26,981 nucleotides of DNA from a virus (lineage: Duplodnaviria; Heunggongvirae; Uroviricota; Caudoviricetes): IMG/VR virus record IMGVR_UViG_3300006139_000005, positions 90,050 to 117,030 of that record, one strand, 5' to 3'. Made by a program: the position numbers and the translations under genes. The notes under the pieces are model-generated. The model saw only the letters and a list, made by a program, of their open reading frames with translations. It did not search any database and was not told where the DNA came from. Positions 20,482-26,981 of this stretch are shown here, piece by piece (the first letter of the stretch is position 1; each line of letters opens with the position of its first letter).

Positions 20482-21507
20482 TCACAGATCAGACAGGCTC
20501 GTTTGCTTTTGTCCGACAATCTCTCCATCTTGGAAATACTTCCCGATTTCCTCTTCATCATCAATATCCTTGTAGATCTCCACCATTTCCAGACTCTCCC
20601 AGCCGATGATAGTCTTGATTACAGAGTCTGGCAGGTTGGCCTTAGCCAGAGATGTAGTGAAGAAGTGTCGGAGGCTATGCCAATACACTGGGATATCCAA
20701 AATGTTAGAGAACGTCTCTGTCCAGCTATTCAGCGTTGAAATCGGGATTGGCTGAGTAGGATCATCTTTGTCTGGGAAAAGCCATTCACTATCAATACCA
20801 AGTTCCGCCCGTTTCTGCATCCATAGGTCGAAATACGGTTTGAACGGTTTAGAAAGCACATAACACGTCAACATCTTGCCATTTACGCCACGCCCTTTGG
20901 TCTTGATTTTTTCAGGCGTTTTATAAAGTGAGCCATAGATGATATTCTCATCGTCAAAATATGACACTTTGAACCTCGGCAACTCAGACTTGCGCCGTCC
21001 AGAATAGCGAGCCAGAGCAAAACAGCAGGCTTTCTCATATTGCTTGCGTCCAACCAAATACTCCAGCAGAGTATCCGCTTGTTCATCAGTTAGCACTGTT
21101 TTCTCTCTGGTTGGTTCATTGATTGGGTTTTCAATCTTCCGAACGATTGAACGGAATCCTGGAAGTTCATCATCCAAAATTGCCTCAATGTAATTGCTGA
21201 GAGAGGAAAGTGTTGCCTTCAGCCGGCGCACACGAGCCGGAGAGTTTTCATTGTCCCGCAACAACCAGTTTTGATAAGCGACAATATCTCGTTTGCTAAC
21301 CTCTGGAAAATATTTATTGTCAGCATTTTGAAGCACCCACACAAAGAAGATATAGAGATCGCTTGTGTAGGCTTTCACGGTAGACTCTGCTTTGCCAACC
21401 GACCTCAGATAGTCCAGAAAGTCATTCATCAGCCGAATGTTCTTCGGATTGATCTGGGCGATCAACTCAGGTGAGGTAATTTTGTTTTGCTTTGTTTTTC
21501 GTCCCAT
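20482..21507 (-). CDS. Second tyrosine recombinase (XerC/D-like)
   Basis: 'YSGRRKSEL', 'HSLRHFF', 'IIGW', 'IY'; no arm-binding domain. Confidence 0.92.
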   Translation of the reverse strand: MGRKTKQNKITSPELIAQINPKNIRLMNDFLDYLRSVGKAESTVKAYTSDLYIFFVWVLQNADNKYFPEVSKRDIVAYQNWLLRDNENSPARVRRLKATLSSLSNYIEAILDDELPGFRSIVRKIENPINEPTREKTVLTDEQADTLLEYLVGRKQYEKACCFALARYSGRRKSELPRFKVSYFDDENIIYGSLYKTPEKIKTKGRGVNGKMLTCYVLSKPFKPYFDLWMQKRAELGIDSEWLFPDKDDPTQPIPISTLNSWTETFSNILDIPVYWHSLRHFFTTSLAKANLPDSVIKTIIGWESLEMVEIYKDIDDEEEIGKYFQDGEIVGQKQTSLSDL

Positions 21508-21575: not shown

Positions 21576-21654
21576 GGCGAATAGTAGGGCGGCATATCCT
21601 ACATCTCAGGTTCCATTGTTGGAGTGTTGGGAGCCATTTCCAACCTCATTCGTC
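21576..21654. ncRNA. Candidate structured RNA (multi-hairpin, cloverleaf-like; not a canonical tRNA)
   Basis: Closing stem GGCGAAT/ATTCGTC; hairpins GTAGG-N9-CCTAC, TCCA-N4-TGGA and GTTGG-N9-CCAAC. Confidence 0.35.
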
Positions 21655-23135: not shown

Positions 23136-23708
23136 TTACCCATTCAGCCGCTCAACGATAGCGTCCATCTGGGTCTTTGCAACCGTCAGCTTCTCCACAA
23201 CCTCAGACGCAAACGGCTCAGGTAGATCCATACCGTACTGCACAGCGGCAATAGCCTCCACATCATCAAGGCTCTGGACATAGGCTTTCAGCGCATTATG
23301 ATAGGTGGTCTGAGTAGTGATAGCACTCTGAGCCGCAATGTAGATTTGAGCAATTTCCTGGGCGGTGTAGATACGGCACACGCCGCCGTCCGCCTGATAG
23401 GGGAACTCGGTGCCACCAAGCTCAACCACACGGAACAGGTTGGCGATATTGCTCTGATCCTCAATGCTCAGATTGAAATGCACTGGGCCGTCTGTCAATG
23501 TCAGGTCGATACCAGACACGATGACGGTGTTACAGGCCGCAGAGATTTCAACGATCTTCGCCGCACGAATGACTTCCGTAGACTGGTCAGCACCAATAAT
23601 CTCAACAGCGTCCTCAATGGTGATCCATCCTCTTAGGATAGCGTTCAGCACACCCTTGTCAGAGATTGTCTTATCCTGATACAGTTGTGCAATGTAATTC
23701 TTATCCAT
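23136..23708 (-). CDS. DUF4376-like tail-associated protein
   Basis: 'K..EIS.AC...I..G', 'HF.LS.EDQ.N', 'Y.ADG..C..YT..E'. Confidence 0.7.
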   Translation of the reverse strand: MDKNYIAQLYQDKTISDKGVLNAILRGWITIEDAVEIIGADQSTEVIRAAKIVEISAACNTVIVSGIDLTLTDGPVHFNLSIEDQSNIANLFRVVELGGTEFPYQADGGVCRIYTAQEIAQIYIAAQSAITTQTTYHNALKAYVQSLDDVEAIAAVQYGMDLPEPFASEVVEKLTVAKTQMDAIVERLNG

Positions 23709-23997: not shown

Positions 23998-24396
23998 TCA
24001 AATTTTGATAAGTTCCATGATATGCTGCAAATCCTCAATCGGGGCAGCATAGAACTCACAGTTCCAAAGCCAGAAGTCCTCATATTCAGTCATGCGATAC
24101 TTTTGACAGCGTTCGTCCGCCCACACTTTATCCCATCTGGCCTGATAGTTCTTGTTTCTCTTAACCAATGTAGAGATAATTTCAGTGGTCAACTTGCCAC
24201 GCTCTTCTCCATGTCCATCGTCATTTTGAGCAAAATGATCAATCCCGCTCTGACTATTCACCGCACATACCGGCTCCCCATTCCACAATAGGCACCCATT
24301 CTGTGCCTCCACGTGTGTACCATAGGGGATATTCACATCACCGCTGACACCCGTAAACCGTGCCCGTTTTTTCACAATGTAGTTTTTGTACTCCAC
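23998..24396 (-). CDS. Hypothetical protein directly downstream of the DGR RT
   Basis: GGAGGA before GTG 24396 (VEYKNYIVKKRARF...). Confidence 0.7.
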   Translation of the reverse strand: MEYKNYIVKKRARFTGVSGDVNIPYGTHVEAQNGCLLWNGEPVCAVNSQSGIDHFAQNDDGHGEERGKLTTEIISTLVKRNKNYQARWDKVWADERCQKYRMTEYEDFWLWNCEFYAAPIEDLQHIMELIKI

Positions 24397-24420
24397 AAAA
24401 AATTCCTCCAAACATAACAA

Positions 24421-24447
24421 AACGTCTGGAGCATACGCCCAGACGTT
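24421..24447 (-). terminator. Hairpin just downstream of the RT
   Basis: AACGTCTGG-N9-CCAGACGTT; weak T tract. Confidence 0.45.
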
Positions 24448-24463
24448 CGTTGATTTCAGATAT

Positions 24464-25639
24464 TTAGGCTGTCTGTTTAAGCAACTTCTGTTGCTCTTGC
24501 TGCCTGTACTTGTTAAACAGGGCATAATGTAGCCTCCGCAACCGAAGAAGCCGCCCATGGTCGTTGTAGTTTCGGTAATACGCCGTTTGACACTCCATGA
24601 ATTGGTCGATATCGGCAAGTGTACGCTTACCGTCCAAATATTCACGATGGAACAGTTTTAGCTTGCGTCTTGCACTCTTCATTCCGCCACGATTGCCATT
24701 CACCTTAATTCTGCCAGTCTCTGTCAAAGTAAACCTTGCCTTACAGAAGCGGAATCCTTTAGAGCTGGAGAGAGGAACGATTTTGCATTTTCGCCGGTTG
24801 ACACGAATACCATAGGACTCCATCATTGCCACGATCTCACGAGCAATCTTCTTCAGCTCCTCAATATCGGGGAGAATGATGTAATAGTCATCCATGTAAT
24901 GACCAGCACAATGTATCCCCAGCTGGCATTTGATGTAGTTATCAATAGCACTGGGAAGCGCAACCATTTCCTGTTGACTTGGCTCCACACCGAGCGGCAT
25001 ACCACGACCAGGCGCTGTAGCTGGTGCCGTTCTGACAATGTAATCCGCAAACGCCCGAACTTCTGGGTTCAACATCACTTTACTATGCCGCTGGTATATT
25101 AGCTGACGGTTAGCATTTGGGAAGAACTTCTTCAAGTCCATAAGAAACACTGCACCATCACGCCCGTACCGTCGATAGTGCCATGCCAGTTGTTCTTTAA
25201 GCCGCCGAAATTGCCAATGTAATCCCTTATTCTTCTGACTGGCCGCATTGTCGATTATCATGCTGGGTTCATACAATGGAATAAGAATTTTGTTGCACTC
25301 CACCTTTTGAACCTGTCGATCAACAATGTGCGGAGCATCAATAGGACGTACTTTCCCTCGCTCATGAAGTGTAAAATGAGAACACGGTTGTGGCTTCCAC
25401 ATTCCACTGACCACCATTTGACGCCTCTTAGCAGTACCAGAAAGCAGATGCAGTTCAAAGTTCTGGGTGCTTTGTTTCCAACGCACACCCTTACAGCACT
25501 CTTTACCGAAAAAGAACATATCGTGAAAATTGTAAATTTTGTCGAGTGATCCTACCTCGTCACTCCGTTTTTGCCTATTGGCCTGTCGCCGCGCTTGGCG
25601 GCGTTGGTAACGCGCCTCTCGGCGCTCTTCACTTGTCAT
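24464..25639 (-). CDS. DGR reverse transcriptase
   Basis: 'HERGKVRPI', 'DRQVQ', 'MDLKKFF', 'GMPLGVEPSQ' (GxxxSQ DGR signature), 'YMDD'; GGAGG upstream of ATG 25639. Confidence 0.96.
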   Translation of the reverse strand: MTSEERREARYQRRQARRQANRQKRSDEVGSLDKIYNFHDMFFFGKECCKGVRWKQSTQNFELHLLSGTAKRRQMVVSGMWKPQPCSHFTLHERGKVRPIDAPHIVDRQVQKVECNKILIPLYEPSMIIDNAASQKNKGLHWQFRRLKEQLAWHYRRYGRDGAVFLMDLKKFFPNANRQLIYQRHSKVMLNPEVRAFADYIVRTAPATAPGRGMPLGVEPSQQEMVALPSAIDNYIKCQLGIHCAGHYMDDYYIILPDIEELKKIAREIVAMMESYGIRVNRRKCKIVPLSSSKGFRFCKARFTLTETGRIKVNGNRGGMKSARRKLKLFHREYLDGKRTLADIDQFMECQTAYYRNYNDHGRLLRLRRLHYALFNKYRQQEQQKLLKQTA

Positions 25640-25854
25640 AATTTTATTCGCCCTCCGCATAGATGTCTTGTAGGTGCGTGTCTAATACTACGTTGACCAT
25701 ACACATGAAACGAGGTAAACGCAATCCCCCGCCATGCAAGCAGCGTCCGTGCATGGTCGTCAAAGGGCAGTTTTAGGCTTTCACCAGGGAAGTATTTCTC
25801 CTTTTGCAAAGGTCGTCCTTCGCCGAAGCTACTACCATTCGACCTCGCACATTG

Positions 25855-25979
25855 CAAAATCCGGGGCGCACACCCGCCGACCAGGAAGCATTGTTGTTGT
25901 TGATGTTGCCGTTGTTGTTCACATTACAGAAATTGTTGTTGTTGTTGTAATAGGGGGAACGCAACCACCACCACACAGC
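25855..25979 (-). repeat. DGR template repeat (TR)
   Basis: Reads AVWWWLRSPYYNNNNNFCNVNNNGNINNNNASWSAGVRPGF with 14 AAY codons; 25857-25913 aligns with 26925-26981. Confidence 0.95.
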
Positions 25980-26016
25980 AGTGTGACTCATTTACAGAAA
26001 TACACCCATAGACCGA

Positions 26017-26481
26017 TTACTGCTTTTTAGTTTGTGCCAGTGCCTTAGTAACACCTCTGAGAAGTTCATCTTCCTTGTCGATCAGCAGCCCTAAACTTTC
26101 CGCCATACGATCAAGTTTCTCAATCGCATCCACAGATTTCAACTGAACACCTTTACTATTTGTAAAGCATCCTTCTGGGTTCTGCATCATAAGAAGATAG
26201 CAATGCGTAAGCCGCACATCCAAGGCTTTCAAAGAAGCCCTTGCTTCCAGCAGGTGTGCCTTGCGCAATGTCTTTCTCTGGTCGTCTGAGGGGTAGATAC
26301 TGTTTGCCATTTCAGCTTGATCCACCACTCCACCGGCCAGATGTGCGATATCCTCAGCAATCAATCTGGAATATCTTGCAGACAGCCTTGTAAGAAAATT
26401 TAGCGTTTCCACATAAAGTTGGTTTGCCGTATTGACAAACTCCGCCTTGCTTGTGGTACGCTTTGCTTTAAGTACCGACAC
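26017..26481 (-). CDS. avd: DGR accessory variability determinant (Avd-like four-helix bundle)
   Basis: 'MSVLKAKR..SKAEF', helical, 154 aa; canonical position upstream of TR and RT. Confidence 0.8.
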   Translation of the reverse strand: MSVLKAKRTTSKAEFVNTANQLYVETLNFLTRLSARYSRLIAEDIAHLAGGVVDQAEMANSIYPSDDQRKTLRKAHLLEARASLKALDVRLTHCYLLMMQNPEGCFTNSKGVQLKSVDAIEKLDRMAESLGLLIDKEDELLRGVTKALAQTKKQ

Positions 26482-26674
26482 TGTTTTTCTCCTCTTCTAC
26501 TGCTTTTTTAGTATCTATCACCCCGCGCTCCTGCTCAACTTGTTCCAGGTGCTTGATTAAGACATACTCGATGTAATTTGTCATGGATCGGTGCTCATTC
26601 GCCGCAAGCGTACCAATCTTATCAAACACGTCATCAGTCAGACGCAGGGTAAACACTCGTTTGGTTGTCGCCAT
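26468..26674 (-). CDS. Arc-like ribbon-helix-helix DNA-binding protein
   Basis: 'VFTLRLTDDVFDKIGTLAANEHRSMTNYIEYVL'; GGAGG ribosome-binding site; overlaps the avd start. Confidence 0.85.
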   Translation of the reverse strand: MATTKRVFTLRLTDDVFDKIGTLAANEHRSMTNYIEYVLIKHLEQVEQERGVIDTKKAVEEEKNSVGT

Positions 26675-26808
26675 ATTATCGTACCTCCATCTAACTGGTA
26701 TAAGGTATATTATAGGGCGACGTTCATGCTTTGTATGCAGTCTTTAACCTGTCAAGTGATAGCACTTTTTTGGAAAACTGCAAAAAAGCCCATTTTTCAA
26801 AAAATCGC

Positions 26809-26889
26809 GTCGGCGCTTCGCGCCGACATTGTTTTCCGTACCGAAACTTTCTGCCTCTATCGAAGCACCCGCCCACTGACGTGGGCGGG
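26809..26889 (-). promoter_or_regulatory. Two GC-rich hairpins downstream of VR (candidate DGR target-recognition structures)
   Basis: CCCGCCCAC-tgac-GTGGGCGGG at 26868-26889; GTCGGCGC-ttc-GCGCCGAC at 26809-26827. Confidence 0.75.
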
Positions 26890-26915
26890 ATATAGACCCG
26901 ATACACTGCGGTAGA

Positions 26916-26981
26916 TTAGACAGAAAAGCCGGGGCGCACACCCGCTGACCAGGAAGCAAGGATGTTGGTGACGTAGCCGTT
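26916..26981 (-). CDS. 3' end of the DGR target gene (variable repeat; probable C-type-lectin-fold receptor-binding protein), truncated by the window edge
   Basis: Reads NGYVTNILASWSAGVRPGFSV*, in frame with TR NGNINNNNASWSAGVRPGF. Confidence 0.9.
   Translation of the reverse strand, partial: NGYVTNILASWSAGVRPGFSV

Follow-up and report, generated by a model that had tools for sequence, protein, structure and literature searches.

The window analysed here, a 26,981-nucleotide stretch (positions 90,050 to 117,030) of the Caudoviricetes record IMGVR_UViG_3300006139_000005, carries a cassette at one end of a phage contig of 117 kb. The phage is found in mouse-gut metagenomes and, judged by complete relatives, has a genome of ~138 kb. 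All parts of the cassette lie on the minus strand, in the order target-1 3′ end with VR1, GC hairpin, terminator, conserved upstream region, RHH gene, Avd-fold gene, template repeat (TR), RT-2 RNA, reverse transcriptase (RT) and a second terminator. The contig retains only the last 21 codons of target 1 and its TAA stop (26916–26981), the rest of the gene falling beyond the contig end; circular closure was considered and rejected because the contig start fails to continue target 1. An intrinsic terminator with a 9-bp stem and a T-run follows the target-1 gene (26808–26828) and is kept in relatives, and a terminator-like hairpin (24420–24448) marks the end of the downstream operon. Two open reading frames listed for this region, one of 72 aa covering the TR (25773–25991) and one of 215 aa overlapping the 3′ end of the RT gene (23998–24645), are not regarded as real genes in the form listed. 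A megablast search of the cassette against deposited phage genomes returned no match.

The locus contains an ungapped repeat of 58 nt at 86% identity between 25856–25913 and 26924–26981. The second copy contains the last 57 nt of VR1 (26925–26981), aligned to TR positions 72–128, the first ~71 nt of VR1 having been lost at the contig end. VR1 differs from the TR at 8 of 57 positions, 7 of which are TR adenines, although adenines make up only 14 of the 57 nt compared (hypergeometric p = 9e-5). On the minus (coding) strand the changes are AAC>TAC, ATC>GTC, AAC>ACC, AAC>ATC, AAT>CTT (two changes), GGA>GGC and a synonymous TCG>TCA, reproducing all eight mismatches of the alignment reported in the first-pass annotation together with the adenine-specific divergence that it had proposed. 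The 57-nt TR given there proved to be the VR1-covered part of a longer element: the full TR spans 128 nt (25857–25984), with the 14 AAY codons originally counted and 34 adenines rather than about 32. Adenine-free runs of ~30 nt lie near both ends of the TR, and positions 95–124 form a GC-rich, IMH-like 3′ end with zero adenines. The GGA>GGC change, originally listed among the adenine substitutions, is indeed present, but it is an identical synonymous change in 13 of 13 VRs examined across the window and relatives, and for this reason is more likely a fixed difference between VR and TR 3′ ends (IMH versus IMH*) than a product of random mutagenesis. The VR1 reading frame closes with the TAA stop at 26916–26918; the contig end cuts into both VR1 and target 1, and their intactness in this phage is judged from relatives.

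A search of the rest of the genome for additional VRs, which had been suggested as a check, uncovered a second, complete copy. VR2 occupies genome positions 75794–75921, outside the window and 40 kb from the cassette, and differs from the TR at 19 of 128 nt, with 18 of the 19 mismatches at TR adenines (p = 1e-11). Each VR carries a single non-adenine difference, G>A in VR1 and T>C in VR2. No VR beyond VR1 and VR2 was found in the 117-kb record. VR2 ends an intact 267-aa open reading frame (target 2) with a DUF6273 / C-type-lectin-like domain. The gene is flanked by a PD-(D/E)XK nuclease gene and a primase-helicase gene, placing it in a replication module, and is encoded on the strand opposite to the cassette, an arrangement conserved in complete 138-kb relatives.

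These comparisons bear directly on the simplest alternative, in which the three repeats are paralogous copies of a shared C-terminal domain that diverged by normal mutation and selection, with no retroelement involved. Conservation of the encoded WWLRSP...GVRPGF motif is compatible with such an origin, since selection could maintain it. Concentration of the mismatches on TR adenines, at a p value of 1e-11, nevertheless effectively refutes it: both A positions of AAY codons change and stop codons are never created, and the TR copy lies outside any real gene, flanked by an Avd-fold gene and a DGR-type RT, with a structured RNA next to it. Divergence of ordinary paralogues is thus assigned a negligible probability, and the region is, with high confidence, a canonical phage diversity-generating retroelement (DGR) with two targets.

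The protein and RNA components of the cassette are those expected from this assignment. The RT gene (24464–25660) has a longest open reading frame of 398 aa, and translation likely begins at the ATG at 25639 to give 391 aa. The product matches RVT_1 (E = 4.5e-13) and phrog_1423 (E = 4e-72) and contains the LGVEPSQ (LGxxxSQ) and YMDD motifs, in agreement with the DGR-type GxxxSQ and YMDD signatures initially reported. The closest match of known structure is the Bordetella phage bRT (8ub7_A, E = 2.7e-10), with both motifs aligned, and a group II intron RT is a weaker match (E = 1.5e-4). The spacer between the TR and the RT start is filled by a structured RNA (25630–25847) recognised by the covariance model of the Rfam RT-2 family (RF03077). 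The match is full-length (model positions 1–222) and scores 154.7 bits, the gathering score being 40, and all 12 related loci compared, FP_Taranis among them, have the RNA at this position. The RNA presumably makes up the 3′ portion of the DGR template RNA.

Upstream of the TR lies a gene for a basic protein of 154 aa (26017–26481; pI 9.1) assigned as Avd (accessory variability determinant). Sequence-family searches of Pfam, NCBIfam and the PDB, the last with phmmer and with a 20-sequence profile, returned no match, and Foldseek comparison of the AF2 model (pLDDT 89.9) with the PDB gave no Avd match at E ≤ 0.001. In VIA-align, the top seven matches to the same model are all Avd or 23S-rRNA-IVP four-helix-bundle chains, with Z scores of 13.3–16.9 and rmsd values of 1.8–2.4 Å (2gsc, Z 16.9; bAvd 4dwl_C, Z 13.3 and rmsd 1.8 Å over 108 residues), whereas generic helical bundles reach Z scores of 12 or less at rmsd values above 3 Å; helical bundles attain high structural scores with ease, and the assignment holds at the level of the fold. 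The gene sits between target and TR in about 70 loci. This conserved position and the ranking of the Avd-family fold uphold the avd-like gene placed upstream of the TR in the original description.

Each VR is followed by a feature characteristic of DGR targets. A GC-rich hairpin (26868–26889) lies 35 nt after VR1, its 9-bp stem capped by a 4-nt GTCA loop; it is a candidate DGR target-recognition hairpin or cruciform, and a hairpin with the loop GGAA is found ~35 nt after VR2. Published DGR hairpins have a GC stem of 7–10 bp and a 4-nt loop and lie 4–34 bp after the VR (PMC3240598), and the GTCA loop of the VR1 hairpin departs from the published GRNA consensus. The same hairpin follows both VR1 and VR2 in relatives, with compensatory changes in the stem and GNNA loops.

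Comparison with related phages shows natural VR diversity beside an invariant TR. The TR is 100% identical in four relatives (L004, L009, L012 and L013), three of which (L004, L009 and L012) carry complete VR1 homologues. The VR1s of relatives each differ from the TR at 6–17 positions, nearly all adenines, and VR1 divergence amounts to 9–18% as against 0.9–3.7% across the adjacent 1283 nt. In complete 138-kb relatives, the mismatches at VR1 and VR2 fall exclusively on adenines (13 of 13, 14 of 14, 17 of 17 and 19 of 19); in relatives G004 and G005 every VR mismatch is at an adenine. Complete VRs thus differ from the TR almost only at adenines rather than randomly across all four bases, and VR2 in this genome and VR1 in relatives end intact open reading frames; these were the two points on which the first-pass annotation had expected a DGR assignment to stand or fall. 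A parallel pattern emerges from 11 distinct target-2 proteins of one 90% cluster from other assemblies, in which three singleton changes are the only ones among residues 1–233, the variation clustering instead at TR-adenine-coded residues between positions 234 and 254. Logan contigs from four mouse-gut runs of four studies have no differences in the VR2 flanks and break at the VR, with 25 of the 25 variable VR positions displayed being TR adenines; these are contigs rather than raw reads, in which rare variants are dropped, short VR contigs are not assignable to VR1 or VR2, and contigs of the TR and VR1 cross-map onto VR2 at 80% likeness. The variation seen is accordingly variation between samples and relatives at the level of contigs, again beside an invariant TR.

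These data also speak to whether the element still functions, as both VRs might have been diversified in the past by a retroelement now silent or defective in this phage, leaving the TR/VR differences frozen. Some cultured Faecalibacterium phages with intact DGRs had no VR variation in reads (PMC11792537), and the runs surveyed here are represented at the level of contigs only, both of which would fit a relic. A silent element is nevertheless very improbable, given that the RT, Avd, TR and RT-2 RNA are all intact and conserved, that relatives less than 4% different in the flanks have different VR1s beside an identical TR, that the target-2 cluster comprises many VR2 versions on otherwise identical proteins, and that assemblies break at the VR in many samples. 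The DGR at this locus is genuine and recently active, and the binding tips of two phage proteins are rewritten by it.

The nature of those tips follows from the domains that the VRs encode. Because both VRs specify the end of a DUF6273 / C-type-lectin-like domain, this DGR diversifies two ligand-binding surfaces. The target-1 homologue is intact in relative L009, where it comprises 674 aa with a C-terminal DUF6273 domain and matches phrog_37900, and target 1 adjoins tail-fibre-like genes. The model of target 2 (pLDDT 89.7) finds structural matches almost exclusively among CTLD proteins, with Z scores of 17.3 for an IgAse N-terminal CTLD, 7.5 for Lcl, 7.0 for TvpA and 4.8 for TaqVP. The CLec-fold target deduced earlier from the encoded motif is thereby borne out as a DUF6273 domain with a C-type-lectin-like fold. 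Downstream of the RT, the tail-fibre-like gene at 23136–23708 matches DUF4376 (E = 4.1e-9) and the tail fiber protein family phrog_1348 (E = 6.5e-10), and had been taken to suggest a tail or receptor-binding target. The domain is present and the cassette does sit beside tail-fibre genes, but the DUF4376 gene is context rather than a DGR target, no TR-like repeat having been found within it, and target 2 belongs to the replication module rather than to a tail module.

The operon opens with a gene for a 68-aa RHH / Arc / RelB-like protein (26468–26674) whose frame overlaps that of avd by 14 nt. It is recognised by weak matches to RHH_7, Arc, a RelB-like antitoxin model (E = 5.5e-5) and Arc-like repressor PHROGs, and the position of the gene is kept in 46 related loci. 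Scanning with the sigma-70 consensus gave no promoter on the minus strand upstream of the RHH gene; a conserved region was found instead by alignment of 12 related loci, including that of FP_Taranis (26709–26765). It holds the near-palindrome GTGCTATCAC, an invariant GCATACA and, 17 nt on, TATAAT. The genome has a single copy of this region, which accompanies the RHH gene in 44 loci and is never seen apart from that gene. The region may act as a promoter or operator, and the position and conservation of the RHH gene suggest a regulatory role for its product, making the gene and its own upstream motif a candidate regulator. Such a regulator is relevant to a question raised for cultured Faecalibacterium phages, namely if and when the activity of a DGR is turned on (PMC11792537). 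A more speculative proposal couples two ideas: that the RHH protein, paired with the motif GTGCTATCAC ... GCATACA-N17-TATAAT, gates mutagenesis by repressing or timing avd-TR-RT transcription, and that the small replication-module target is not a virion protein but an early-expressed, intracellular diversified binder, directed for example against host factors. In conjunction these are doubtful, and neither RHH-gated mutagenesis nor an intracellular early binder was found described for DGRs in the literature surveyed.

By analogy with the Bordetella BPP-1 paradigm, a mechanism can be outlined for the assembled parts. The RHH protein, Avd, the 128-nt TR, the RT-2 structured RNA and the RT would be expressed from one terminator-bounded transcription unit. 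A complex of RT and Avd would reverse-transcribe the TR-containing RNA, misincorporating opposite template adenines, and the mutagenised cDNA would replace the homologous VR at the 3′ end of each of two genes, with the adenine-free, GC-rich 3′ end of the VR and the GC hairpin ~35 nt downstream probably serving as guides.

The finding leaves the understanding of how DGRs work unchanged. Its value lies in a clean, well-supported natural two-target phage DGR in mouse-gut phages, a setting in which mouse models make the system experimentally approachable, and in three small reusable annotations: the Avd fold of the unannotated 154-aa protein (phrog_30516), the identification of the spacer between TR and RT in this DGR clade as the Rfam RT-2 RNA, and the RHH gene and its motif as a candidate regulator. 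The new points, which are minor, are this spacer identity, the conservation of an RHH gene together with an upstream motif of its own, and the replication-module target.

The prototype DGR of Bordetella phage BPP-1 (mtd-avd-TR-brt) resembles the present cassette in its target-avd-TR-RT order, its adenine-specific TR-to-VR differences, its RT with xGxxxSQ and YMDD motifs, its Avd four-helix bundle and its C-type-lectin-fold target, as well as in the GC-rich VR 3′ end and the downstream GC hairpin with a 4-nt loop. In contrast to BPP-1, the cassette described here includes an extra RHH gene, two targets and a spacer RNA of the Rfam RT-2 family, uses an enlarged CTLD of the DUF6273 type in place of Mtd, has GTCA rather than GRNA in the VR1 hairpin loop, and encodes an Avd devoid of a sequence-level match. 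The best structural match of target 2 comes from outside phages, in the N-terminal CTLD of the Thomasclavelia ramosa IgA peptidase (PDB 9qa6; Z 17.3, rmsd 2.1 Å, 173 residues, 22% identity), which its depositors describe as an enlarged CTLD whose function is unknown and without which IgA is still cleaved (PMC12237041). The parent protein is a protease of the bacterial surface, the domain is not among reported DGR targets, and the likeness is one of fold.

The closest known systems are those of the Faecalibacterium phages FP_Taranis, Roos and Pioen (Taranisvirus and relatives), in which tail-fibre genes, a DUF6273 target, an RHH open reading frame, an Avd-like open reading frame, TR, RT-2 RNA and RT are likewise followed by lysis genes. 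The RT is 63% identical to those of Pioen, Taranis and Roos, and the Avd and RHH proteins are 71% and 76% identical, respectively, to those of FP_Taranis, where both are annotated only as hypothetical. VR variation has been demonstrated in reads for Roos and Pioen (PMC11792537). These genomes measure ~52–54 kb as compared with ~138 kb here, and a second VR is reported for Lelie, Lagaffe_CP and CP11 but not for FP_Taranis, Roos or Pioen (PMC11792537), whereas the second target of the present phage lies 40 kb away. Pairs of large and small DUF6273 targets are already published for Faecalibacterium phage Lelie and prophage CP11, which, as here, combine one TR with a large and a small target, both DUF6273-ended with a C-terminal VR, the function of the small target being unknown (PMC11792537). 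Roseburia phage Shimadzu has a tail protein and a protein whose function is unknown as its DGR targets (PMC11792537), and its only match to target 2 sits ~13 kb from the RT. Target 2 shares ~29% identity with the Lelie and Shimadzu proteins over half its length and differs from the Lelie, CP11 and Shimadzu arrangements in being encoded within a set of replication genes, at a distance of 40 kb from the cassette and on the other strand. The lineage is thus one already described in cultured Faecalibacterium phages, of which the present locus is a good example rather than a new type of system.

The source record is a linear IMG/VR virus of 117,030 bp (CheckV completeness estimate 88%), and the window, bases 90050-117030, runs to its last base, which puts the diversity-generating retroelement (DGR) at the contig's extreme end. 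The gapless repeat that the first-pass annotation had placed at this end is real, pairing 25856-25913 with 26924-26981 over 58 nt at 86% identity, and the eight mismatches found on the coding strand match the codon changes described there exactly: seven at adenines of the template repeat (TR) and one synonymous G>A in the variable repeat that ends the target-1 gene (VR1). Because adenines make up just 14 of 57 TR bases, this concentration has a hypergeometric p of 9e-5. The VR1 frame reads ...NGYVTNILASWSAGVRPGFSV, followed by a TAA stop at 26916-26918; that of TR carries the 14 AAY codons reported earlier and 34 adenines rather than about 32. A search of the whole 117,030-bp record with the TR region as query, a step the annotation had proposed, returned three sites: TR, the truncated VR1, and a complete third copy (VR2) on the plus strand at genome positions 75794-75921 (L002:1501-1628 in the region holding it), beyond the window and 40 kb from the cassette. 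Its ungapped alignment gives TR a full length of 128 nt (25857-25984), with 19 mismatches, 18 at TR adenines and one a synonymous T>C (p = 1e-11). The synonymous GGA>GGC near the VR 3′ end, previously counted among the changes at TR adenines, is the same in 13 of 13 VRs examined and more likely reflects a constant difference between VR and TR 3′ ends than a mutagenesis event. The repeat observation is confirmed, and interpretation of the locus as a DGR is very probably correct.

All features discussed in the window lie on the minus strand. In transcription order, the target-1 3′ end with VR1 is followed by a GC hairpin (26868-26889), a terminator (26808-26828), a conserved upstream region (26709-26765), a 68-aa ribbon-helix-helix (RHH)/Arc/RelB-like gene (26468-26674; weak but consistent family matches), a 154-aa Avd-like gene (26017-26481), TR, an Rfam RT-2 RNA (25630-25847; full-length match, 154.7 bits), the reverse transcriptase (RT) gene (24464-25660, start likely at 25639), and, last, a terminator-like hairpin (24420-24448). 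Downstream of RT are genes for a DUF4376 tail-fibre-like protein, a membrane protein, an integrase, and a tail lysozyme, which places the cassette at the tail-fibre/lysis boundary. A 215-aa ORF listed at 23998-24645 (minus) overlaps the RT 3′ end and terminator; the start of the real gene within it is probably a GTG near 24386, preceded by a GGAGGAA ribosome-binding site, and family searches with its product of about 129 aa gave no match. At 21576-21654 (minus), directly upstream of the gene for the tyrosine integrase (20482-21507), is a skipping-rope RNA (Rfam RF02924, 69.4 bits) that also occurs 3′ of the DGR in a relative, L021 (12102-12180). In another related phage contig, a type II hammerhead ribozyme match barely over the gathering score (39.3 bits; L050:10861-10925, minus) lies about 4 kb 3′ of the DGR RT.

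The RT matches RVT_1 and the phage RT family phrog_1423; among solved structures it aligns best to the Bordetella phage DGR RT, a group II intron RT ranking lower. The claimed GxxxSQ and YMDD motifs are borne out by this alignment, in which LGVEPSQ stands opposite IGSLTSQ and YMDD opposite YMDD. Sequence-family searches with the Avd-like protein gave no match, but the best structural alignments of its confident model (pLDDT 89.9) are seven chains of the Avd/23S-rRNA-IVP family, including bAvd (Z 13.3-13.8, rmsd 1.8-2.1 Å across some 108 residues); generic helical bundles score lower (Z 12 or less, rmsd above 3 Å). Helical bundles readily give high structural scores, and support for the Avd identity proposed earlier is therefore at the level of fold; it is strengthened by conservation of the gene's position upstream of TR in about 70 related loci. 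The RT-2 RNA lies between TR and RT in all 12 loci tested, a placement that appears unreported in the literature found, and its position matches that of the DGR RNA's spacer part.

In 46 related loci the operon opens with the RHH gene, which more distant DGRs from that RT family lack. The preceding region at 26709-26765 contains a near-palindrome, GTGCTATCAC, and an invariant GCATACA 17 nt ahead of TATAAT; it occurs once in the genome, shows strict linkage to the RHH gene in 44 loci, and may be an operator or promoter. Since autoregulation is common for RHH proteins whose gene opens an operon, a putative regulatory role is a reasonable inference here. The conserved first-gene position and linked upstream region appear unreported in the literature found. 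Near each of its ends, TR itself contains about 30 nt free of adenine. About 35 nt 3′ of each VR lies a GC-rich hairpin, with a 9-bp stem and 4-nt loop GTCA after VR1 and a 7-bp core stem and 4-nt loop GGAA after VR2. Their offset is unchanged in relatives, in which the stems differ yet stay complementary (for example CCCGCCCAC/GTGGGCGGG, CCGCCCCC/GGGGGCGG, CCACCCGC/GCGGGTGG, and CGCCCGC/GCGGGCG). These putative elements match the hairpin/cruciform needed for BPP-1 retrohoming and described in other phage DGRs, with 7-10 bp GC stems and 4-nt GRNA loops 4-34 bp after VR (PMC3240598), although some loops in the present lineage are GNNA.

Target 1 is truncated in this contig; its 674-aa homologue in a related locus, L009 (RT 91% identical), has a C-terminal DUF6273 domain, and the genes preceding it there are without informative family match. 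VR2 closes an intact ORF, target 2, whose true start is probably an ATG located 16 codons into the ORF as listed, given homologues of 267 aa in public assemblies. Target 2 matches DUF6273 (E = 1.9e-24), already termed C-lectin-like (PMC10743442), and structural matches to its model (pLDDT 89.7) are almost exclusively C-type-lectin-like domains (CTLDs). Top-ranked is the N-terminal CTLD of the IgA peptidase from Thomasclavelia ramosa (Z 17.3, rmsd 2.1 Å, 173 residues), an enlarged CTLD of unknown function according to its depositors (PMC12237041); others include Legionella Lcl (Z 7.5), many animal CTLDs, and the DGR variable proteins TvpA (Z 7.0) and TaqVP (Z 4.8). The gene is flanked, all in the same orientation, by PD-(D/E)XK nuclease and primase-helicase genes. 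This place among replication genes, kept in complete 138-kb relatives, appears unreported for a small target in the literature found.

In five IMG/VR relatives the RT is 91-95% identical to that of the window. Their TR is identical to the window's in four and differs by two bases in the fifth, whereas each of their VR1s departs from TR at 6-17 positions, almost all of them adenines, and every VR1 is distinct; the VR1 segment diverges from the window by 9-18%, versus 0.9-3.7% in the adjacent 1283 nt. Two complete 138-kb relatives share the two-target layout, and the mismatches at their VR1 and VR2 fall at adenines only (13/13, 14/14, 17/17, and 19/19). The target-2 90%-identity cluster has 41 member sequences; in its eleven full-length members residues 1-233 are invariant save three singleton changes, and positions 234 to 254 are hypervariable at TR adenine-codon residues. 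Mouse-gut metagenomes from six or more studies contain the phage. Contigs from four mouse-gut runs of four studies were mapped to VR2 at 80% likeness, a setting that also admits TR and VR1 contigs. Over the 931- and 802-nt flanks the contigs have zero differences; they break off at the VR, where each of the 25 variable positions shown is a TR adenine. These data represent between-sample diversity, not within-sample heterogeneity. Contigs end 1.0-1.45 kb upstream of RT, at VR1, in 20 of 80 related loci, and some others stop at TR. Such ends fit systematic assembly breaks at repeated, variable sequence, which explain why this contig ends inside VR1. Together, the sequence comparisons provide evidence that the element has been active in nature.

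The nearest cultured relatives, the Faecalibacterium phages Pioen, FP_Taranis, and Roos, have RTs 63% identical. Gene order is the same in FP_Taranis, likewise at the tail-fibre/lysis boundary and with the RT-2 RNA between TR and RT; its 61- and 152-aa ORFs, both annotated hypothetical, are 76% and 71% identical to the RHH protein and Avd, respectively. In Faecalibacterium phage Lelie and prophage CP11, one DGR serves a large and a small DUF6273 target, and the targets in Roseburia phage Shimadzu are a tail protein and another protein whose function is unknown (PMC11792537). With cultured relatives of matching gene order and published two-target DGRs, this kind of system is therefore already known: the element is a textbook-type DGR within a lineage already studied in culture.
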